DNA of 64,000 bases. It comes from Clostridia bacterium. GTDB taxonomy: Bacteria; CBDUZB01; JAGLHV01. A program made the translations under genes and the position numbers. Each line of letters starts with the position of its first letter. Positions within the stretch are counted from its first letter, which is position 1. The stretch spans positions 1,476-65,475 of the forward strand of contig JAUVLC010000001.1 of the NCBI GenBank assembly GCA_030595925.1, written 5' to 3'. Below the pieces are notes generated by a model that did not search any database, was not told the DNA's origin, and worked only from the letters and a program-made list of their open reading frames with translations. Below are positions 5,003-63,935 of this stretch, one piece after another.

Positions 5003-5890
5003 TTATCCACGAGGATGATATTTCTTGTGTAAAATTTTCAGTTTTTCCCTGGTAATATGAGTATAAATCTGAGTAGTAGAAATATCAGAATGGCCTAACA
5101 TTTCCTGAACAAAACGTAAATCCGCACCACGCTCCAATAGATGTGTCGCAAAAGAATGCCTCAATGTATGAGGACTCACCGTCTTATAAATACCGGCTTT
5201 TTTCATATATTTCTTCACTATCTTCCAAAAACCCGTCCGAGAAAACTTTTTTCCTCTCTGACTTAAAAACAAAATTTTTTTATCAGATTTTTTTTCATTC
5301 CGCACTTTTTCCAAATAAACATTAACGGCATTTTTTGCTTTTTTACCTACCGGAATTATTCTTTCTTTATTACCTTTTCCCAAACATTTAACATATTCCA
5401 TCTTTAAATTAATATCCGATAATTTTAAATTAATTATTTCCGAAACCCTCATTCCCGTAGCATACAACAATTCTAACATTGCCCTATCACGCAATTTATT
5501 ATTGGATTTTTCAGCATCATTCTTCAAATAATCAAGTAACTTTTCAATTTCTTTAATACTCAAAACGTTTGGGAGGCTAAAACCGCTTTTTGGTGTTTTT
5601 AAATTAACAGTAGGATCTGTTTTTGCATATCCCTCCGTAATCAAGAAACGGTGAAACATTTTCACGGAAATTAAAAATCTCCCTAAAGAAGAAACTTTTA
5701 TTCCCTCTTTTTTCCTCGATTCCAAATAAAATAATATCTCTTTATAGGTTAAAGAAAAAAGAGAACATTTTCTTTTTTCTAAATAGTTAAGATAAGCACT
5801 TAAATCAGATAAATAAGCATCTTGAGAATTTTTAGAAAGTCCTTTTTCAAACGCTATGTAATTAATAAACTCTTCTAAAATTTTTTTCAT
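5003..5890 (-). CDS. tyrosine recombinase, XerC/XerD family
   Basis: 295 aa; catalytic region ...GMRVSE...HTLRHSFATHLLERGADLRFVQEMLGHSDISTTQIYTH (R-H-R-Y family); N-terminal SAM-like domain; core-genome context. Confidence 0.8.
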   Translation of the reverse strand: MKKILEEFINYIAFEKGLSKNSQDAYLSDLSAYLNYLEKRKCSLFSLTYKEILFYLESRKKEGIKVSSLGRFLISVKMFHRFLITEGYAKTDPTVNLKTPKSGFSLPNVLSIKEIEKLLDYLKNDAEKSNNKLRDRAMLELLYATGMRVSEIINLKLSDINLKMEYVKCLGKGNKERIIPVGKKAKNAVNVYLEKVRNEKKSDKKILFLSQRGKKFSRTGFWKIVKKYMKKAGIYKTVSPHTLRHSFATHLLERGADLRFVQEMLGHSDISTTQIYTHITREKLKILHKKYHPRG

Positions 5891-14026: not shown

Positions 14027-14149
14027 TAATAACTCCTTCTAATAACTAACTTTTAATTATAACAAAAAGTTCCCTTAAAAACAATAAAAAAATGCCTCCT
14101 ATTAACTATTATAATAAGAGGCATTAAAATTTGAAGTTAATTTACTTTA

Positions 14150-14355
14150 GGGTCTGCTGAAAAACCCAGCAGTCCCTGATTTCACAGATTAAAAAGCAGA
14201 TTACACAGATTAAAACTCAGACGACAAAATTGATGTACTTTTTTCAATATCTGTGTAATCAAGGCTTACTGAAAAATTTATATGCAGTCATTTACATATT
14301 TATTCCATCGATATTTTGTCCGCCTGAGGCAAATTCGCATTTTTTCAGTAAGCCC
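14150..14355 (+). repeat. MITE-like ~200-bp dispersed element, copy A
   Basis: GGGTCTGCTGAAAAACCCAGCAG...GGCTTACTGAAAAAT...ATTTTTCAGTAAGCC with internal inverted repeats; two further copies at 34585-34768 (inverted) and 49449-49740. Confidence 0.6.
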
Positions 14356-29532: not shown

Positions 29533-29707
29533 AAAAATTTTCCTCCCTTTTTTCACGATACACGATTCAAGATACATGATACAAACAAATTATTAGTGGT
29601 AGCCGCAGGCTTCAGCCTGCGTTTCCTTATGGTCATTGCTAATAGCTAAGAGTATTTCAAATTAACCTATATTCTATAATTCTATATCCTGTATCCTGTA
29701 TCGTGAA

Positions 29708-31261: not shown

Positions 31262-31328
31262 ATTCCTCTCCTTTCTTTCACGATACACGATACATGATTC
31301 ACGATACATGATACAAACAAATTATAAA

Positions 31329-31397
31329 CTGGTAGCCGCAGGCTTCAGCCTGCGTAATTTCTCCCATACAAACGCAACCTAAAGGTTGCGGCTACCA
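31329..31397 (+). repeat. three-way-junction hairpin element (GGTAGCCGC...GCGGCTACC)
   Basis: An outer 9-bp stem GGTAGCCGC/GCGGCTACC encloses hairpins GCAGGCTTCAGCCTGC and GCAACCTAAAGGTTGC; the related core GGTAGCCGCAGGCTTYAGCCTGCG occurs at 26165, 29597, 32731, 34346 and 38617, and inverted at 43823, 44896 and 57698. Confidence 0.6.
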
Positions 31398-33694: not shown

Positions 33695-33744
33695 TATATT
33701 GAAATATGAAATTCATATATTCAAATTATCTCAGGAGGTTAACC

Positions 33745-34014
33745 ATGTTAAGAAAATTAGGACAAAGTTATCAAATCGCTTTACCAAAACAGATTATAAA
33801 AGAACTTGGACTTAAAGTAAATGACTATTTAGATGTAATTACAAAAGATAACAAAATCATTATTGAACCAAAAGTCTTAATTCCCAAAGAACAAGCCTAT
33901 TTCTATACCCCTCACTGGCAAAAGGGTGAAAAAAAAGCTAGTAAAGATATTAAAAAAGGTCGTGTTACCAAAACAAAGAACTTAAAAGAGCTATTTAAAA
34001 AATTGGATAAATAA
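33745..34014 (+). CDS. AbrB/MazE/SpoVT-family antitoxin
   Basis: MLRKLGQSYQIALPKQIIKELGLKVNDYLDV swapped-hairpin beta-barrel signature; AGGAGG RBS; the start sits 39 nt inside the ORF-track call. Confidence 0.6.
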   Translation: MLRKLGQSYQIALPKQIIKELGLKVNDYLDVITKDNKIIIEPKVLIPKEQAYFYTPHWQKGEKKASKDIKKGRVTKTKNLKELFKKLDK

Positions 34015-34017
34015 CCT

Positions 34018-34275
34018 ATGCATATAGAAGCAACTGCTACTTTTACAAAGCTTTATAAAAAATTACCTTCTAACATTAAAGAGAAAGTAAAAAAAGCTTT
34101 AAAACTTTTACAAAACAATCCCTCTCATCCTTCTTTACGACATAGAAAAATAGCCGGTCAATATGACATCTTTGAAATAAGCATAACAATGAACTATAGA
34201 ATAACCTACCAAAAAATTAGAGAAATAGCTTACCTTAGAAAAATAGGCACACATGATATTTTGAACAAACCCTAA
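34018..34275 (+). CDS. RelE/ParE-family toxin
   Basis: 85 aa; its start lies 3 nt after the antitoxin stop; C-terminal pattern RHRKIAGQYDIFEISITMNYRITYQ...IAYLRKIGTHD is typical of RelE/ParE. Confidence 0.55.
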   Translation: MHIEATATFTKLYKKLPSNIKEKVKKALKLLQNNPSHPSLRHRKIAGQYDIFEISITMNYRITYQKIREIAYLRKIGTHDILNKP

Positions 34276-34345
34276 ACACAATTCATGCTACATGATTCAA
34301 AATTCAAAATACACGATACACAATGTATGATACAAATTTCAACTT

Positions 34346-34434
34346 GGTAGCCGCAGGCTTTAGCCTGCGTAATCTTTTTCCCTTATAAACGCAACCTTCC
34401 TCCAGAGGCGGACAAGAAAGGTTGCGGCTACCTT
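34346..34434 (+). repeat. three-way-junction hairpin element, extended copy
   Basis: GGTAGCCGCAGGCTTTAGCCTGCG...GCAACC(ttcctccagaggcggacaagaaa)GGTTGCGGCTACC. Confidence 0.6.
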
Positions 34435-34584: not shown

Positions 34585-34768
34585 GGCTTACTGAAAAATG
34601 CAAATCCGCCTCAAGCGAACAAAATATCGACGGAATAGATATACAAATAATTGCATATAAATTTTTCAGTAAGCCTTGATTACACCGATTTTGTCGTACA
34701 GGTTTTAATCTGTGTAATCTCCTTTCTAATCTGTGAAATCAGGGGCTGCTGGTTTTTTCAGCAGACCC
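34585..34768 (-). repeat. MITE-like element, copy B (inverted, shorter variant)
   Basis: Its reverse complement aligns with 14150-14355 and lacks a ~30-bp internal segment; it abuts the stop of gene 34771. Confidence 0.6.
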
Positions 34769-34770
34769 TA

Positions 34771-35616
34771 TCATTGAAACAACTCCTCAACCATCAGCAT
34801 ATTAGTTCCGTGTGTATGCCACCCTGCTGTACACTCAGTTGCATGGTTATTCTTAACCTGTACATCTATAGTATGCTCACCAGCAGAAATATCCGGAACC
34901 AAAATCATATGGGAAGCAAAATTCATAGACCAGTTTACACCAATAACACCAGTGCCGCCACTAATATAAAGAACCCCATCTCCATCAATTCTTACTCGCC
35001 AATCAGAGGCAGCGAAGGCTGAACTTCCTCCTTGATAGTGACCCAAACAATCATAATAAACTATTCTAAGTACTGAATTATCGTATTTTTTAGTAAAGTT
35101 TAAAATTCTATCCGGATAGGTCGTCCAACTTGTGGGAGTAAGTCGGTTATCAGGCATCCCTTTCATATAAGTAATGTGACTTTTGGGTTTTTCCGAATGT
35201 TCGGCTTTTTCCGAATATAAAGAATATGCTACCCCGGTTAATTCTTCTCTGGGTTTAAGTATTGTTGTCTCTTCTATAATAATCTCTAAATAATATGTTG
35301 CTTCATTCCATTCAATATCCGATAATGATTTGTTACTACCCAATTGATAATTAAATAAACCATTATTTATCAAAACATCCTGCTGTTCACTGTTCCAAAT
35401 AGAATTTCCCCCTGCAGCAACATTATAAATCTTAAACTCTATTGTTTTTGTTCCGTTAACCGGCTCTCCATTTTCTTTCAATTTACCCTGATAATTAATC
35501 TTTCCCGGCAAGCCAGCAAAGAGCAAAGAGCTTTGAGCATAGAGTAAAAAGCAAAAAGCTAAGAGCATTGAGCGTAGAGTAAATGATACGATCCCCTTAA
35601 ACAAAATTTTCTTCAT
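34771..35616 (-). CDS. secreted tail-fibre/adhesin-like protein (paralog of 42723..43661)
   Basis: Signal peptide encoded by the AGAGCWW array; the N-terminal ~120 aa are nearly identical to 42723..43661 (GLPGKINYQGKLKENGEPVNGTK...NGLFNYQLGSNKSL...PREELTGVAYSL). Confidence 0.5.
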   Translation of the reverse strand: MKKILFKGIVSFTLRSMLLAFCFLLYAQSSLLFAGLPGKINYQGKLKENGEPVNGTKTIEFKIYNVAAGGNSIWNSEQQDVLINNGLFNYQLGSNKSLSDIEWNEATYYLEIIIEETTILKPREELTGVAYSLYSEKAEHSEKPKSHITYMKGMPDNRLTPTSWTTYPDRILNFTKKYDNSVLRIVYYDCLGHYQGGSSAFAASDWRVRIDGDGVLYISGGTGVIGVNWSMNFASHMILVPDISAGEHTIDVQVKNNHATECTAGWHTHGTNMLMVEELFQ

Positions 35617-35753
35617 TTTTCCTTCCCCTTTCTTTATTAAGCTAAGAGCTAAGAGCTAAGAGCTAAGAGCTAAGTGCTTAATTAATTTAAACTTAATCTG
35701 TAATTTCTGCATCCTGTATCCTGTATCGTGAATCCTGTATCGTGAATCCTGAA

Positions 35754-36317
35754 TCACCTGATTATCATTATCCTTCCTTTTCTCTTCTCTCCCTGATTAT
35801 TAGTAATTACATATATATACACCCCACTAGAAATATCCTTTGACTTGTCCCACCGATACCTGCCATCTCCATCTGTTTCTTCCAATTCACAAACCTTCTC
35901 TCCCGAAATAGTATAAATTTTAATTTTGGCATAGGGGGTCAGATTGGTAAAAGTAATGCAGGAATGCTTACCGGGTTTAAAAGGAACCGGATAGGCAAAT
36001 ACCTGGTCTAAATTATTTTTCACTGAATCTATATCCCCGGACAAAGATTCCTGACTTACTCCCAAAAAACCCAGAGATAACTCGTAATTCCCTCCATAAA
36101 AAGTACCAACTCCCCCTGGCTGGCCAAAAGAACTTACCAGCTCAAAATCACCCCCTTTTAAAGCAGCAAGACTTCCACTGGCAATAACAGAACTCTCAAT
36201 GGAATAATCCCCACCGGTCAAAGACCATATCAACCCAGCAACTAAAAATAAAAACAACAATACATTTACCACGACTCTACTAATTTTCCCTACCCGAACA
36301 CAACTTGATTTAAACAT
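35754..36317 (-). CDS. small secreted protein with a T9SS-type C-terminal sorting domain
   Basis: The C-terminal ~80 aa (FAYPVPFKPGKHSCITFTNLTPYAKIKIYTISGEKVCELEETDGDGRYRWDKSKDISSGVYIYVITNNQGEKRKGRIMIIR) resemble a Por-secretion CTD and are ~85% identical to the C-terminus of 51716..53698; the start is refined to MFKSS (RBS AAAAAGGAGGG). Confidence 0.6.
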   Translation of the reverse strand: MFKSSCVRVGKISRVVVNVLLFLFLVAGLIWSLTGGDYSIESSVIASGSLAALKGGDFELVSSFGQPGGVGTFYGGNYELSLGFLGVSQESLSGDIDSVKNNLDQVFAYPVPFKPGKHSCITFTNLTPYAKIKIYTISGEKVCELEETDGDGRYRWDKSKDISSGVYIYVITNNQGEKRKGRIMIIR

Positions 36318-36364
36318 TTTCCTTCCCTCCTTTTTTTCATGATTCAAGATACACAATACATGAT

Positions 36365-36757
36365 TCACGATGTAAAGATATTATGTTTCTCCTGAACCGA
36401 CTTAGTAAAATTATAAAGCTTGGCACCTAACTCCTTATAACATTCGTAAAGTTCATTAAATATGGACATAGCTAATGATCCTGTTTCACATAAAAGTTCA
36501 AGATGTACTTTTGTTTCATCACAAGAAGCAATAGCATAAACTAAATATTGAATAAATTCATTTCTATGGCGTCTTCGCCCAAATCCTTCAACAATGTTAG
36601 AAACAATTGATTTAGAAGATCGTCGAATTTGACTTCCCTCTTCATACATTTCAAATTTAGGAATATCTTTCAGTGTCATTTTATGTATTTTTACAGCATT
36701 TTCTTTTGCTAATTGATATATCTCTAAATCCCTATAAGACATTGGCTTTTTACTCAT
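36365..36757 (-). CDS. four-helix-bundle protein (23S rRNA intervening-sequence protein family)
   Basis: MSYRDLEIYQLAKENAVKIHKMT...FPK.E.Y...SQIRRSSKSIVSNIVEGFGRR matches the TIGR02436-type family; RBS GGAGGG. Confidence 0.8.
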   Translation of the reverse strand: MSKKPMSYRDLEIYQLAKENAVKIHKMTLKDIPKFEMYEEGSQIRRSSKSIVSNIVEGFGRRRHRNEFIQYLVYAIASCDETKVHLELLCETGSLAMSIFNELYECYKELGAKLYNFTKSVQEKHNIFTS

Positions 36758-36945
36758 CACCACCCTCCGTCAATCCATCCTGCATCCTGTATCGTGTATC
36801 CTGTATCCTGTATCATGAATCTTGTATCCTGCATCCTGTATCCTGTATCATGAATCTTGTATCCTGTATCCTGTATCCTGAATCCTGAATCGTGTATCCT
36901 GTATCGTGTATCCTGTATCCTGTATCATGAATCTTGTATCCTGTA

Positions 36946-38454
36946 TCATATTTCCTGATAAAACCATAATTTCGCCATATTATCCCTGGTACCGGAAATC
37001 CATTTTTGAGAAATCTTTAGAGTATCTGATTTGATATACTGAGCATCTACAATATAATACCAGTTTCTCCAACGATTTTTTGTATCCCTTCCCCTTATTG
37101 ATAAATCTCCTGTTTTCTTCCCATTGACCGATATTTCTATATTTAAATCTCCGTAAAAATAATCAAACCTGCGAATAAAAAGCAACTCCCTGTTAGGAAC
37201 AACATTTTTAATCGTCCATTCAGTAGTTCCTTCAATATACCCCTTTACTATACCTTCTACTTTTTTTCCATCAGGATAAGTAAAACTTTGCCTTCCTGTA
37301 AACTGGTCTTTAGCATCTATTACTTTAAAATTATGTTGTTTTTCAGAATTTTTTTCAGCAAAATCAATTACATCAATCTTAGTATATTTCTTATCTCCGA
37401 CTATTAAAGTCCTGGGCAAATCCTGACTCATCATTTTAATATCATTCAAACCAAGACGCTTTGTTAATAACATAGTCTTTATCAAATCCATAGCTTCTAC
37501 CTGAGTTCTAAGTAACAATTCTAAATCTTCCAAACTATCACTGTACTTTGCAACAAATTCAGAAAGTTGCTGGACTTTTGCTTTATAATCTCCAAAAATA
37601 GACATAGTCGAATATTCCCACTGAGGTAATTTTTTTTCAGCTTCGATAATTTCCCTTACAATTTTATTATCTATCTCCACAATAGGTCTTATCATTTCTA
37701 TCATCTGAGAAACATTCAGACTTCCTCCGCGAACCAACATCAAAGATGTAATCGCCGTAATTTGTAAATCTCTTATGGAAGAAAGAGGCATTTCTCCTTC
37801 TACTAACATCATTGTATTTTTTGTCCTGTCTAATGTATGTATTACTTGCTTTTTTAAATAAGGAGACAAAGTAGGTATCGCCATTTTTACCCATGGAACA
37901 AAACGAAGATCTATTTCATTAACCCCTGGTTTCATAGAGTCTTTTACCTCACTTATAATTATCTTACCTTCTTTATCCTGTTCTAAATAAATACGCGCAA
38001 GCTCTATAGCTTTCATAGAATCCGGGACAGTAGCAGTTATTTCGATTTTAGAAGACTCTAAACTTTTCCTATAGCCCTGGTATTTAGGATTGGCTTCATT
38101 TACAAAAAAATCAACCGGTGTTTCTATAAATTCAATAGTAACATAAAGAAGACGAGGAAGTTTATATTTTTGTAATTCAATATTTTTTATTACCGATTCA
38201 TGTAAAAATATATCATTCCCTTCTCCATCAATAGCATATCCGGAAGCAATTTCCACAGTCAAACCCTCCCCTTTCTGATGACTGGAAACTTTTAACTCCC
38301 CCTCATATCCAGGCACAATCCCATAACCATAAAAAATTCTATTCTGCAATTTCCTCTTTTCAATGTGATAACCATGAGCCTCACTCCAATGATTTTCTGT
38401 GGCTACCAACCCTTTAAAAAAATTTGCCCGTTTAAAACCTTTTAATTCTTCCAT
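36946..38454 (-). CDS. hypothetical 502-aa protein (possible structural component)
   Basis: Long ORF with an RBS-like leader and no recognisable motif; a fragment of the 4HB gene's 3' end lies upstream. Confidence 0.45.
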   Translation of the reverse strand: MEELKGFKRANFFKGLVATENHWSEAHGYHIEKRKLQNRIFYGYGIVPGYEGELKVSSHQKGEGLTVEIASGYAIDGEGNDIFLHESVIKNIELQKYKLPRLLYVTIEFIETPVDFFVNEANPKYQGYRKSLESSKIEITATVPDSMKAIELARIYLEQDKEGKIIISEVKDSMKPGVNEIDLRFVPWVKMAIPTLSPYLKKQVIHTLDRTKNTMMLVEGEMPLSSIRDLQITAITSLMLVRGGSLNVSQMIEMIRPIVEIDNKIVREIIEAEKKLPQWEYSTMSIFGDYKAKVQQLSEFVAKYSDSLEDLELLLRTQVEAMDLIKTMLLTKRLGLNDIKMMSQDLPRTLIVGDKKYTKIDVIDFAEKNSEKQHNFKVIDAKDQFTGRQSFTYPDGKKVEGIVKGYIEGTTEWTIKNVVPNRELLFIRRFDYFYGDLNIEISVNGKKTGDLSIRGRDTKNRWRNWYYIVDAQYIKSDTLKISQKWISGTRDNMAKLWFYQEI

Positions 38455-38689
38455 CCTTATTCCCTCCTTTTATTCACGATACAAGATACACGATACATGA
38501 TTCATGATGTAAAGATATTGTGTTTTTCCTGAACCGATTTAGTAAAATTATAAAGCTTGCCCCCTTTTCACGATACAAGATTCATGATTCACGATTCACG
38601 ATATAAATCTCAATTTGGTAGCCGCAGGCTTTAGCCTGCGAATTAACTGATTATAAAACTAAAATCACTTTAAAATCTGTAATCTGTAA

Positions 38690-39132
38690 TTCTTTATCCT
38701 GTATCCTGTATCCTGAATCCTGAATCGTGTATCCTGTATCGTGTATCCTGAATCCTGTATCTTGAATCTTGTATCGTGAATCCTGTATCCTATAATCCTG
38801 TATCGTGTATCCTGTATCCTATATCCTATAATCCTGTATCGTGTATCCTGTATCCTATATCCTATATCCTATATCCTATATCCTATATCCTATATCCTAT
38901 ATCCTGTATCCTATATCCTATATCCTATATCCTATATCCTGTATCCTGTATCCTGTATCGTGAATCATGTATCTTGTATCTTGTATCTTGTATCTTGAAT
39001 CTTGTATCGTGAATCCTGTATCCTATATCCTGAATCCTGAATCGTGTATCCTGTATCTTGAATCTTGTATCGTGTATCCTGTATCGTGTATCCTGAATCA
39101 TGTATCCTGAATCGTGTATCCTGTATCTTGAA
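38690..39132. repeat. ATCNTGW heptamer tandem array (~63 units, longest in the window)
   Basis: atcctgt atcctga atcgtgt ... atcctat x9 ... atcttgt; it spawns the spurious ORFs 38776..39012(+) and 38925..39143(-). Confidence 0.9.
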
Positions 39133-39990
39133 TTATATTTCATTTTCCCCTATAACCATTTCCTTTACTTTTTCTTTTTTCTCTTCTTCAGAAACAGCGA
39201 AAATAAGAAAATATTTAGTATGAGCCGGTTTCTCAGTACGAATTATTTCATGAATCTTTTTTATAGTATAATCATCCACCTTTTTTACAGGTAAAGGAAC
39301 TTTAACCGTAAAACAATGGGCTAAATCCACTTTTTCTTCAATAATACTATCCATTCCCACCAGTGAGCCTACTCCAATCTCAAAATCCTTAAAAGGAAAA
39401 TGGTGCTCTATGATTTCAGGTTCTACACCGGTAATTATTTTTAAATAAAGTTTTAATCCTCTTAACGTTCCTCTCCACTTATAAATCTCCACCGCATTTT
39501 TTATTAATTTCCTTTTCTTTTCTTCTGTCCAGTTCTCATCCAAAACCATAGCCATCCACGAAGCAAGCCAGGGAAGAAAAACAGAAGGTGCATAATAAGG
39601 ATGAAAATAGGTATGTATATTATCGAGTTTTTCCTGAACACCAGAAAGCAAATGTTGAAAAATCCACAGATAATCCTTTAGAAAATTCTTTCCGTTAAAT
39701 TTTTGCTCGTGAAATATTGCCGGCAACCAGTCAAGATAACTTTTCCGACAAATAGTAACATCTATTGTTTTATCTAAATTTACTTTCTCTCCAACCTCTG
39801 GTTTCTGCCTAAGCACAGTATTTATTACCCGATGACTTTCCTCATAATAAACATCACCCAGCTTAAAACCGGCATTGTTCATCACCTTTTTTGCCCGTTC
39901 CAAAGACAAATTAATCAGATTAGGAACAATTACCTTTTCTTTTTTAAAGTCCTTTTTTGAAATATTTACTGCTATAGCCATTTTATTCAC
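39133..39990 (-). CDS. PASTA-domain protein with a phage P2 gpI-like tail/baseplate domain
   Basis: N-terminal PASTA-like segment (VIVPNLINLSLERAKKVMNNAGFKLGDV...IDVTI); the C-terminus (WRGTLRGLKLYLKIITGVEPEIIEH) is reminiscent of the tail protein I family; tentative. Confidence 0.35.
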   Translation of the reverse strand: MNKMAIAVNISKKDFKKEKVIVPNLINLSLERAKKVMNNAGFKLGDVYYEESHRVINTVLRQKPEVGEKVNLDKTIDVTICRKSYLDWLPAIFHEQKFNGKNFLKDYLWIFQHLLSGVQEKLDNIHTYFHPYYAPSVFLPWLASWMAMVLDENWTEEKKRKLIKNAVEIYKWRGTLRGLKLYLKIITGVEPEIIEHHFPFKDFEIGVGSLVGMDSIIEEKVDLAHCFTVKVPLPVKKVDDYTIKKIHEIIRTEKPAHTKYFLIFAVSEEEKKEKVKEMVIGENEI

Positions 39991-62631: not shown

Positions 62632-62644
62632 GTCTTCTCCTAAA

Positions 62645-62772
62645 AGCTTAGAGCTTAGAGCATAAAGCGTAGAGCTTAGAGCGTAGAGCTTAGAGCGTAG
62701 AGCTTAGAGCATAGAGCTAAGTGTTAAAAGCTAAGAGCTTAGAGCAAAGAGCTAAGTGCTAAGAGCGTAGTG
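62645..62772. repeat. AGAGCWW heptamer array
   Basis: agagctt agagcat aaagcgt agagctt agagcgt ... Confidence 0.85.
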
Positions 62773-62828: not shown

Positions 62829-63350
62829 TTAAATATCATGCATCTTCTTCTTTTTCATATATTCTCTGCAAAAATTGGTAAATAAATCCCTAACAGTACT
62901 TTTTGCGGACACACCTGTTTCTTGTAAACTAACATCCTTATCTTCTTCTCTTTGTGGAGAAGCTTTCTGTACCGGAATAGATTTATTTTGTCTATCAATC
63001 TTTACTACAGGTTGTCCCTTTCCGCCTTCTGCATAAGACGAAGTAGCTTTATCCCTGTTGTTAAAAAGAGAGAGAAGAACAAAATCACTTTCAGAATGTT
63101 CAGCAGACCGAACAGGTCTATCATCATTTTTACCAGGTACTTCTATCTTGTTACTTATTATTGTAGGACTAATTTTTGGATAAACCGCTTTGTCAGTTAT
63201 GTTTTTAGATAACTGGTTCGATATTAAAGGTACATTATTACCCACTTTGTTATCTTCAAAAAAAGGGGATAGAGAAAATAGTTTTTCCATAATAGCAGGA
63301 AATGGCGATTCTCTTTCTATGAGCATAGGGCTAAGAGCATAGGGCATAGA
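62829..63350 (-). CDS. hypothetical protein (true start uncertain; the upstream ORF extension is repeat-derived)
   Basis: The track ORF 62829..63785 reads through the ATCNTGW array (IQDTRYR...); the plausible real starts MPYALSP/MLIERES/MEKLFSL lie after an AGAGCWW remnant; no domain recognised. Confidence 0.3.
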   Translation of the reverse strand, partial: SMPYALSPMLIERESPFPAIMEKLFSLSPFFEDNKVGNNVPLISNQLSKNITDKAVYPKISPTIISNKIEVPGKNDDRPVRSAEHSESDFVLLSLFNNRDKATSSYAEGGKGQPVVKIDRQNKSIPVQKASPQREEDKDVSLQETGVSAKSTVRDLFTNFCREYMKKKKMHDI

Positions 63351-63404
63351 GTTTTTGTTTATTGGTCCTTCGCCTGAGAAGGATAAAGCGAATTGTTCAT
63401 TAAT

Positions 63405-63650
63405 GCTTGCATCCTGTATTTTGTATCCTGTATCGTGCATCCTGTATCGTGTATCCTGTTCTTCATCCTGCACCCCAAATTTTGGATTATGTATTCTGTA
63501 TCTTGGATCCTGTATCGGGTATCTTGGACCTTGTACCGGATATCTTGGATCCCGTATCGGAAATCGTGCATCATGTATTTTATGTTTTATGTCCTGCATC
63601 CCAGGTTCCGTATCTCCTGCATCCTGCGTCCTGTCATCCAGCATCTTTAA
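63405..63650. repeat. ATCNTGW heptamer array (mixed, degenerate)
   Basis: atcctgt attttgt atcctgt atcgtgc ... atcttgg atcccgt; the source of four overlapping spurious ORFs. Confidence 0.85.
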
Positions 63651-63749
63651 ATAATATTCTTTCATTGTCATCGTAGGAATAATATATTTAGAAATTTCCC
63701 CTGTCTCATTGGGAATATTCGGTAATTCGGACAAAGCATCTCGTGAATC

Positions 63750-63935
63750 CTGCTCTATGCTCCTTACTCTATGCTTTTCGTTCAATGTTCTTTGCTCTAT
63801 GCCCTTTGCTCCATGCTCTTCGCTCCATGCTCTTTGCTCTTTGCTCTCTACTCTATGCTCCCCGCTCTTTGCTCTTTGCTCTCTGCTCTCTGCTCTATGC
63901 TCTTCGCTCTTTGCTCTTCGCTTAGAAACAGGAAT
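63750..63935. repeat. reverse-orientation AGAGCWW (GCTCTNN) heptamer array
   Basis: ctctatg ctcctta ctctatg ... ctctttg ctctctg. Confidence 0.85.

Follow-up and report, generated by a model that had tools for sequence, protein, structure and literature searches.

A four-helix-bundle gene of the 23S rRNA intervening-sequence type and a duplicated segment of its 3′ end among the heptamer arrays of an eCIS cluster

The four-helix-bundle gene and the copy of its 3′ end

The 64,000-nt stretch of DNA analysed here, called the window from now on, comes from a Clostridia bacterium (assembly GCA_030595925.1, contig JAUVLC010000001.1, positions 1,476 to 65,475) and contains a gene for a four-helix-bundle (4HB) protein of the type found in intervening sequences (IVS) of 23S rRNA. 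The gene is located between two genes of an extracellular contractile-injection-system (eCIS) cluster, and about 2 kb upstream of it lies a short segment, named here the stump, which corresponds to its 3′ end. The spacers around both are filled with tandem heptamers, and the gene together with its flanking repeats is referred to as the cassette. All genes around the 4HB locus and the stump are on the minus strand. The features of the two sites are the following.

36365..36757, minus strand: intact 4HB gene (23S rRNA IVS / S23p family), ATG at 36757, 130 aa plus stop, with PF05635 and TIGR02436 matches
36763..36768, minus strand: Shine-Dalgarno (SD) sequence GGAGGG of the 4HB gene, 5 nt ahead of the ATG, as read from the sequence
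36318..36364, minus strand: leader Y (47 nt), serving as downstream arm of the intact cassette, with the four inverted units ATCATGT, ATTGTGT, ATCTTGA, and ATCATGA, then an A-run and, for the next gene, GGAGGG
38502..38565, minus strand: 4HB stump, codons 111-130 plus stop of a putative second 4HB gene, found by blastn, tblastn and profile search
38455..38501, minus strand: stump leader (47 nt), composed of four inverted units and AAAAGGAGGG and reaching to the ATG of a CIS13-like gene
38566..38602, minus strand: orphan leader X, five inverted units and then AAAAGGGGG, joined directly to stump codon 111

The first-pass annotation had proposed from the letters and translations that 36365-36757 encodes a four-helix-bundle protein, and the gene is a genuine member of the PF05635/TIGR02436 family. 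The curated cutoffs of both families were passed (PF05635, 2e-27 and 96 bits with a cutoff of 33.8; TIGR02436, 2.9e-25 and 88.6 bits with a cutoff of 24), and the same start, with the ATG at 36757 and 130 aa, was present in the JGI and Logan gene calls. The AlphaFold (AF2) monomer model, obtained from 28 homologues, had a pLDDT of 91.4 and showed four long helices comprising residues 12-30, 34-60, 65-91, and 97-124. In Foldseek searches the model was superimposable with Xcc0516 (2gsc; TM-score 0.83/0.91, root-mean-square deviation 1.1 Å) and BT_0352 (2rld; TM-score 0.72/0.80), both described as “S23 ribosomal protein family”. Like these proteins, the 4HB protein is a four-helix bundle with the motif R-x3-S-x3-N-x2-E, but the sequence identity to them is just 22-28%. 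The motif published for the family is GxxRxxxSxxxNxxE (PMC3936711). Its residues are R46, S50, N54, and E57 in our protein, N54 and E57 being invariant and R46 and S50 nearly invariant among the 28 homologues; the leading G deviates from that spacing by one or two residues. The family is very large and its degree of conservation is unusual: about 4150 relatives were found at E <= 1e-10, in Nitrospirota, Planctomycetota, Desulfobacterota, and others, with a maximum identity of 73%. No PADLOC match was obtained for the locus, and the reading as anti-phage defence was dropped; nor was a close relative detected in viral contigs, which gives no support for carriage by phages. Consensus scans for a promoter or terminator of the cassette's own scored no more than shuffles.

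Comparison of the region 36250-36800 with the whole window by blastn aligned 36323-36428 with 38460-38565 over 106 bp (90.6% identity, E 1.5e-37). When all heptamer arrays were masked, 36365-36428 still aligned with 38502-38565 with 58 of 64 positions identical (90.6%) and E 4e-18, and the upstream segment is therefore a true homologue of the 4HB 3′ end, with a similarity well outside background. The relationship was also seen at the protein level, where the last 20 residues of the 4HB protein matched 38564..38505 on the minus strand by tblastn, and a family profile run against the six-frame translation of the window recovered the intact gene (E 6e-72) and the stump (E 0.0027, profile positions 111-127). 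With the same two methods no further 4HB fragment rose above noise in the other spacers of the 64-kb window. The two copies are in exact register with an offset of 2137 bp, and the ungapped shared segment starts at codon 111, continues past the TGA stop, and takes in a 47-nt leader up to the ATG of the gene that follows (36317 and 38454, respectively). The near-identical copy described earlier is thus real, and its shared length is 111 nt instead of about 65. The two strings quoted for it were correct and are located at 36359-36422 and 38496-38559; the coordinates given for the copy, 38505-38568, were displaced by about 9 nt. The further suggestion that cassette boundaries move found no support here, the 3′ boundary being identical to the base in both copies.

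Since short-read contigs break inside the arrays (the Logan contigs L002 and L004 end in heptamers), we considered whether the duplication could be a chance similarity or a chimera assembled from repeat-rich sequence. In the JGI contig L001 and in the contigs L002 and L004 both the fragment and the intact gene recur without a single base difference, and the agreement of three independent assemblies indicates that the duplicated segment is not an assembly artefact. The copy, moreover, has four substitutions of its own and unique flanks, and taking into account the E value retained after masking, the chance of such an origin is negligible.

The differences between the copies are informative. In the coding part 4 of 54 unambiguous sites differ, and all four changes, distributed over 18 unambiguous codons, are synonymous third-position transitions, so that first and second positions are unchanged (0/36) and third positions are changed in 4/18. 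The probability that four random transitions would all be synonymous is P = 0.0097, which argues that most of the divergence took place when the fragment still belonged to a translated gene. In its present state the stump lacks a start codon, has a TGA in frame immediately ahead of codon 109 and retains only half of helix 4, for which we consider it a pseudogene stump. Taken alone, it is most likely a small, ordinary pseudogene relic.

Another protein with the same fold is bAvd, from the diversity-generating retroelement (DGR) of Bordetella phage, on which the model could be superposed more loosely (4dwl and 8ub7; TM-score about 0.7). Avd is part of the DGR reverse-transcriptase ribonucleoprotein and is thus an earlier example of a protein with this fold that acts on nucleic acid (PDB entry 8ub7 description). 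A homopentameric toroid is expected of the PF05635/TIGR02436 family, and the entries 2gsc, 2rld, and 4dwl contain five chains each. Considering that target-like fibre and lectin-type genes are found nearby, the 4HB protein could be seen as an Avd accessory factor and the two similar segments as a template/variable repeat pair. However, among about 58 open reading frames (ORFs) scanned against Pfam no reverse transcriptase (RVT) appeared, the locus has no template/variable repeats, and the repeated segment sits within the 4HB ORF itself. The differences between the segments are C/T and A/G transitions at synonymous sites and not adenine-specific, and the identity to Avd is about 12%, compared with 22-28% to Xcc0516 and BT_0352. 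In the face of the missing reverse transcriptase and of a repeat without adenine bias, the DGR explanation is effectively refuted, and we assign it a very low probability.

Heptamer arrays as arms of the cassette

The repeats in these spacers constitute the arms of the cassette, that is, inverted heptamer arrays such as surround 4HB genes in many phyla. Two direct arrays are of importance here.

36776..36947, minus strand: upstream arm of the intact cassette, a run of about 24 heptamers in tandem, GATACAG / GATTCAC type (gene strand), by Tandem Repeats Finder (TRF) and unit scan
38695..39130, minus strand: 433-bp GATACAG-type array following the stop of the Tail_P2_I gene (TRF 38695-39127, 61.6 copies)

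TRF delimited the upstream arm at 36777-36947 (171 bp, period 7, 24.4 copies). On the other side of the gene, the region of the last of the downstream inverted units supplies the TGA stop of the 4HB gene. The duplex between the two arms of the intact cassette had a dG of -33 kcal/mol (z -7.5), and the duplex of the 433-bp array with either of the inverted arms in the stump spacer reached -46 kcal/mol (z -8 to -9), which makes this array a potential pairing partner of both. Across the window the arm duplexes ranged from -28 to -51 kcal/mol, with z from -6 to -9. The minimum free energy fold of the 651-nt cassette was closed by a stem of about 23 bp between array and inverted units, and the arm stem is predicted to have about 23-30 bp.

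Arrays of this kind are not restricted to the cassette. Between 25390 and 63923 about 45 heptamer arrays of up to 433 bp fill nearly every spacer of the eCIS cluster, and they belong to two families, read on the gene strand as GATACAG / GATTCAC type and CTTAGCT type. The usual order in a spacer is stop, GATACAG array, CTTAGCT array, SD, and start; in a variant order a GATACAG array is followed by a hairpin, inverted units, and the SD. In the first 25000 nt of the window there were no arrays of either family, the three weak period-7 tracts present there having no GATDC core. With regard to stability, L001 (at about 3324) lacks 14 bp with respect to window positions 35640-35678 (CTTAGCTCTTAGCT, two CTTAGCT-type units) and is otherwise identical over 4.25 kb; either the array length is polymorphic in the population or it is unstable in assembly. 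This two-unit indel belongs to the neighbouring CTTAGCT-type array and not to the GATACAG-type arm of the 4HB cassette. CTTAGCT-type arrays are also found in opposite orientation on both sides (63749-63923 and 62644-62769) of a 318-aa ORF at 62829-63923 which had no Pfam matches, so inverted pairs enclosing a gene occur in the second repeat family as well.

The arrangement was surveyed in 80 4HB loci read from GTDB genomes of more than 10 phyla, with arm statistics on 79 of them in flank windows of 110 nt. The upstream flank was reverse-complementary to the downstream flank at z >= 4 in 53/79 loci, and a period-7 signal was present in 45 upstream and 44 downstream flanks, versus 3/170 background windows. 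In 46/57 cases the upstream unit had at most two mismatches with the downstream unit read as reverse complement, while the same-orientation control gave 5/57. When units of different loci were paired about 42% still matched, because most loci share the GATDC core: GAT[AGT]C was contained in 37/56 units and in 2% of random heptamers. The complete unit varies by lineage (GATACAG, GATGCTG, GGGATGC, GTCGCAG, and others). The cassettes were co-oriented with both neighbours in 56 of 73 cases, with median gaps of about 70 bp. rRNA was found in none of the 20 surveyed loci tested (0/20), and known RNA families of Rfam were absent from the window spacers and from 20 other 4HB loci. Homologues from an ENA contig and from Ca. 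Wunengus, the latter placed between CusB and CusA, were likewise seen on visual inspection to have the inverted-array layout, and some gene calls translate the array as an N-terminal “MIHDTGY”. The density of GATDC-core arrays was 64 per 100 kb in the eCIS cluster of the window and 2.9 in the neighbourhood of other 4HB genes, and control loci totalling 433 kb had none. No description of a link between 4HB genes and heptamer arrays outside rRNA was found in the searchable literature, the coverage of which is incomplete. The broader interest of the locus consists of these two points, namely, 4HB genes placed between inverted GATDC-core arrays within co-directional gene strings outside rRNA in many phyla, and the extreme proliferation of such arrays in this eCIS cluster.

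Two decayed 4HB genes were observed in the survey. In a Nitrospirae metagenome-assembled genome (MAG; L035, 324-626) the gene is 5′-truncated to residues 26-126, the upstream heptamers are missing and the downstream arm is kept; in a Nitrospirota MAG (L023, 3001-3276) a frameshift seems to follow residue 95. It may be common for 4HB genes to decay and keep their 3′ arm.

The closest described system is the IVS of Coxiella burnetii 23S rRNA, which carries an S23p ORF and a 28-bp terminal inverted-repeat stem cut by RNase III (PMC4990558). Tandem heptamers (GACAGAT) precede the ORF with a copy number that differs among strains, the ORF is under reductive evolution and the element is regarded as selfish; IVSs with an S23p ORF are also known from Leptospira, Brucella, and Xanthomonas (PMC4990558). 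The element of the window has the same protein family, terminal inverted repeats forming a stem of at least 20 bp around the ORF, and tandem heptamers upstream of it (the 24-unit array, variability in number having been seen in the neighbouring CTTAGCT array only). Unlike the Coxiella IVS, it is situated outside rRNA, between protein-coding eCIS genes, and the sole Rfam match of the window is a tRNA at 1209-1281. Its arms are the heptamer arrays themselves, up to 171-433 bp versus 2-4 units, the unit is of GATACAG type and not GACAGAT, and there are strong SDs for both the ORF and the downstream gene. It therefore shares every architectural feature of the Coxiella IVS except the rRNA location, and by analogy it would work like an IVS but is not an rRNA IVS. 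Cyanobacterial STRR (short tandemly repeated repetitive) heptamers are another case of intergenic heptanucleotide direct repeats. TAACTGA heptanucleotide repeats occur in intergenic regions of marine Beggiatoaceae and some cyanobacteria (PMC4679880). The arrays of the window resemble these Beggiatoaceae and cyanobacterial heptamers in that they are intergenic tandem 7-nt units located just before start codons; the unit differs from TAACTGA, and neither inverted pairs nor the flanking of 4HB genes is mentioned in PMC4679880.

An integron gene cassette was also considered and rejected, as no IntI integrase is nearby and the flanks are heptamer arrays. At the flanks no single imperfect palindrome resembling attC was evident by eye, no formal attC search having been made, and the only tyrosine recombinase of the window is a Phage_integrase-family gene at 5003-5890, read as XerC/D-like, in the housekeeping block 30 kb away.

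Origin of the stump

The leaders around the stump give an indication of how it could have been formed. The stump leader and leader Y are identical in 39/47 positions without gaps, and the next best of the 23 other gene leaders in the window reaches 23/47. By units, however, the resemblance is divided: units 1-2 of the stump leader have 0 and 1 mismatches to leader Y versus 2 and 2 to orphan leader X, and units 3-4 have 0 and 0 to X versus 1 and 1 to Y. From its sequence the stump leader seems to combine parts of both neighbouring leaders, as expected of an unequal crossover. At the other end of the stump, the G-run of orphan leader X reaches 38560, inside the zone at about 38559-38567 which reads as a deletion junction. 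The module formed by inverted units and AAAAGGGGG is also found 8-10 nt before the real ATGs of the AAA-ATPase and DUF1257 genes (31262 and 29531); since it precedes real starts elsewhere, at the stump it would be an orphaned translation start site (ribosome-binding site).

Considering the synonymous-only differences together with the abutting orphan SD module, which point to a once-complete second gene with a later internal deletion, we believe with moderate confidence that the stump is the 3′ remnant of a once-functional second IVS-type cassette located directly upstream of the CIS13-like gene. The gene at 36365-36757 would be an IVS-type selfish cassette outside rRNA, with its own SD and inverted GATDC-core heptamer arms, lodged between two co-directional genes of the eCIS operon. 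On transcription of the operon the arms could pair into a double-stranded RNA stem of about 23-30 bp, which RNase III would cut, by analogy with the 23S rRNA IVS, releasing the 4HB message; the downstream gene would then retain the exit SD carried by the cassette. Unequal crossing-over between two similar inverted-array/SD leaders may have produced a tandem duplication of 2137 bp (CIS13-like gene, array, 4HB), placing a 4HB copy before the CIS13-like gene, or, as an alternative start, a cassette may have been inserted at that site. By duplication and insertion alike, a full-length second copy would have existed; it would have diverged under coding constraint, and an illegitimate deletion from just after the orphan SD to codon 110 would have generated the present structure. 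The derived nature of the spacer is consistent with this course of events. Between the Tail_P2_I and CIS13-like genes there are 678 bp here versus 33-71 bp in two related eCIS loci (L087 and L089), which have neither 4HB genes nor arrays; these compact operons suggest that the stump-bearing spacer is a derived insertion.

A different origin, closest to the idea of the first-pass annotation, is that the near-identical heptamer/SD leaders primed a template switch or a gene conversion through which only the 111-nt piece (4HB 3′ end, inverted units, and SD) came to lie before the CIS13-like gene, so that a full gene never existed there. The arrays offer abundant short homology and are visibly unstable, as the 14-bp indel between assemblies illustrates; the stump leader is a mosaic, and the copy stops at the start codon, where the generic similarity of leaders stops as well. 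On the other hand, neutral drift should have reached first and second codon positions, where 0/36 sites changed versus 4/18 in the third, one end of the copied piece would lie inside unique coding sequence with no priming homology, and the presence of an entire orphan SD module right at the 5′ junction would be left unexplained. We regard this origin as unlikely. The proposal of recombination between spacers holds to the extent that some history of recombination and deletion between repeat-filled spacers is needed and that the stump leader looks hybrid; the synonymous differences and the orphan SD module make a fragment copied on its own look improbable.

It could also be thought that the 4HB 3′ end with its inverted units is a cis-acting RNA element (a processing site, a small RNA, or a protein-binding site) kept upstream of two genes for regulation. 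The length and the register to the ATG are exactly conserved in both copies, and both are able to pair with long upstream arrays. Nevertheless, the window contains two copies only in 64 kb, about 20 other genes have heptamer leaders devoid of the segment, the substitutions track codon positions and not structure, and no Rfam family matches. Such a regulatory leader seems to us quite improbable.

Several points weigh against the derivation of the stump from a once-functional second cassette. The argument for selection is based on 18 codons, and that for a hybrid leader on about 7 informative sites in heptamers that are inherently similar. The third-position divergence of about 0.2 implies a long coexistence of the copies, which is unusual for a tandem duplication of 2.1 kb, and the insertion of an already diverged paralogue or cassette from elsewhere in the genome is possible. 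The nearest CIS13-like homologue is 47% identical and no sister genome with an intact second copy was retrieved, so we infer the ancestral state of the spacer rather than see it. As for the cassette itself, its whole fold is no more stable than shuffles (z -0.63) and only the arms stand out, and 26/79 4HB cassettes are without significant arm complementarity within the 110-nt flank windows. RNase III cleavage, taken from the analogy with 23S rRNA, and expression or function of the 4HB protein are predictions here, and the Coxiella IVS protein is probably not even made (PMC4990558).

If the stump does derive from a second cassette, it would be a dated footprint of IVS-type 4HB cassettes duplicating and decaying in operons while the repeat arms and the exit ribosome-binding sites remain, and it would connect the heptamers that fill the spacers of this locus, otherwise puzzling, with a selfish element already known. 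The wider pattern of 4HB genes between inverted arrays offers a testable hypothesis for this very large family of about 4150 relatives, namely, excision from mRNA by RNase III and possibly binding of the repeats by the protein. The link between 4HB genes and arrays may be functional or merely selfish. A wider proposal, which we put forward as speculative and rather doubtful, is that the GATDC-core arrays and the 4HB protein belong together as a single two-part system, IVS-like elements in operons of more than 10 phyla, the arms of which would have multiplied here to about 25 arrays punctuating the eCIS operon, with the sole surviving Avd-like-fold 4HB protein acting in trans on them. In that case the protein could bind repeat RNA or DNA, with consequences for RNase III processing, translation re-initiation, or recombination, and the stump would mark the turnover of protein-coding copies while arrays persist.

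Neighbouring genes and other repeats of the window

The window is divided in two parts. The first 24 kb contain housekeeping genes (AlaRS, RecA, FtsK, PNPase, IF-2, and NusA), and from 25.4 kb the eCIS cluster begins, with two eCIS_core genes, CIS_tube, GPD hub, two Phage_base_V genes, gp25, baseplate J, PAAR, Tail_P2_I, the CIS13-like gene, and an AAA ATPase. The features next to the cassette and the stump are as follows.

35754..36317, minus strand: gene downstream of the intact cassette, small protein with a type IX secretion system (T9SS) C-terminal sorting domain, ATG at 36317, TIGR04183 8e-08
36946..38454, minus strand: CIS13-like gene, 502 aa, between the stump and the intact cassette, NF053767 CIS13_fam 1.7e-10, under the cutoff
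39133..39990, minus strand: PASTA / Tail_P2_I baseplate gene, upstream of the stump spacer, PF09684 8.3e-17
38605..38640, minus strand: hairpin resembling repetitive extragenic palindromic (REP) elements, mid-spacer, CGCAGGCTAAAGCCTGCGGCTACC, four aligned copies in the window

The T9SS-domain gene also gave weak Por_Secre_tail / CHU_C matches, and its Logan call has 187 aa. Homologues of the CIS13-like gene come after Tail_P2_I in compact eCIS operons, and a metagenome scan with the CIS13-like protein returned no matches.

The REP-like hairpin CGCAGGCTRAAGCCTGCGGCTACC is found at 38605-38640, 34334-34369, 31317-31380, and 29585-29622, and inverted within 43754-43877, 44828-44951, and 57644-57754. 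It is sometimes paired with a second hairpin, GGTAGCCGCAACCTTTAGGTTGCG, and has no Rfam match. The exact hairpin 24-mer is present in more than 120 JGI metagenome contigs of very diverse base composition. We considered the hairpin at 38605-38640 as a marker of 4HB cassettes and rejected it, as a 4HB match was found at only 1/80 hairpin loci, which indicates that it is an independent REP-like element. The three regions with the inverted hairpin (43754-43877, 44828-44951, and 57644-57754) are copies of a dispersed repeat of 110-124 bp, about 92% identical, made of heptamer units, ATTACAG units, the inverted hairpin, and an A-rich tail.

Paralogy is present in the cluster in two further places. 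Two fibre-like genes (Bdello_MAT_N-like) share 80% identity in their 5′ parts, at 35219-35514 and 43261-43559, and 35756-36002 and 51718-51964, the T9SS sorting-domain ends of the 187-aa gene and of an NHL-repeat gene, are 78% identical. Tandem duplications inside genes were seen at 41092-41875, where a 393-bp unit is repeated twice with about 90% identity in a LysM / NPP1-like gene of 577 aa, and at 52487-53596, where units of 183-195 bp occur three times in an NHL-repeat gene. A pair of MazE-like antitoxin and ParE-like toxin genes is located on the plus strand at 33706-34275, amid the otherwise unidirectional eCIS cluster. Finally, a dispersed non-coding repeat relates 14148-14354 to 34585-34770 (inverted, 80%) and 14221-14290 to 49520-49589 (90%), and in this way links the housekeeping block with two eCIS spacers.

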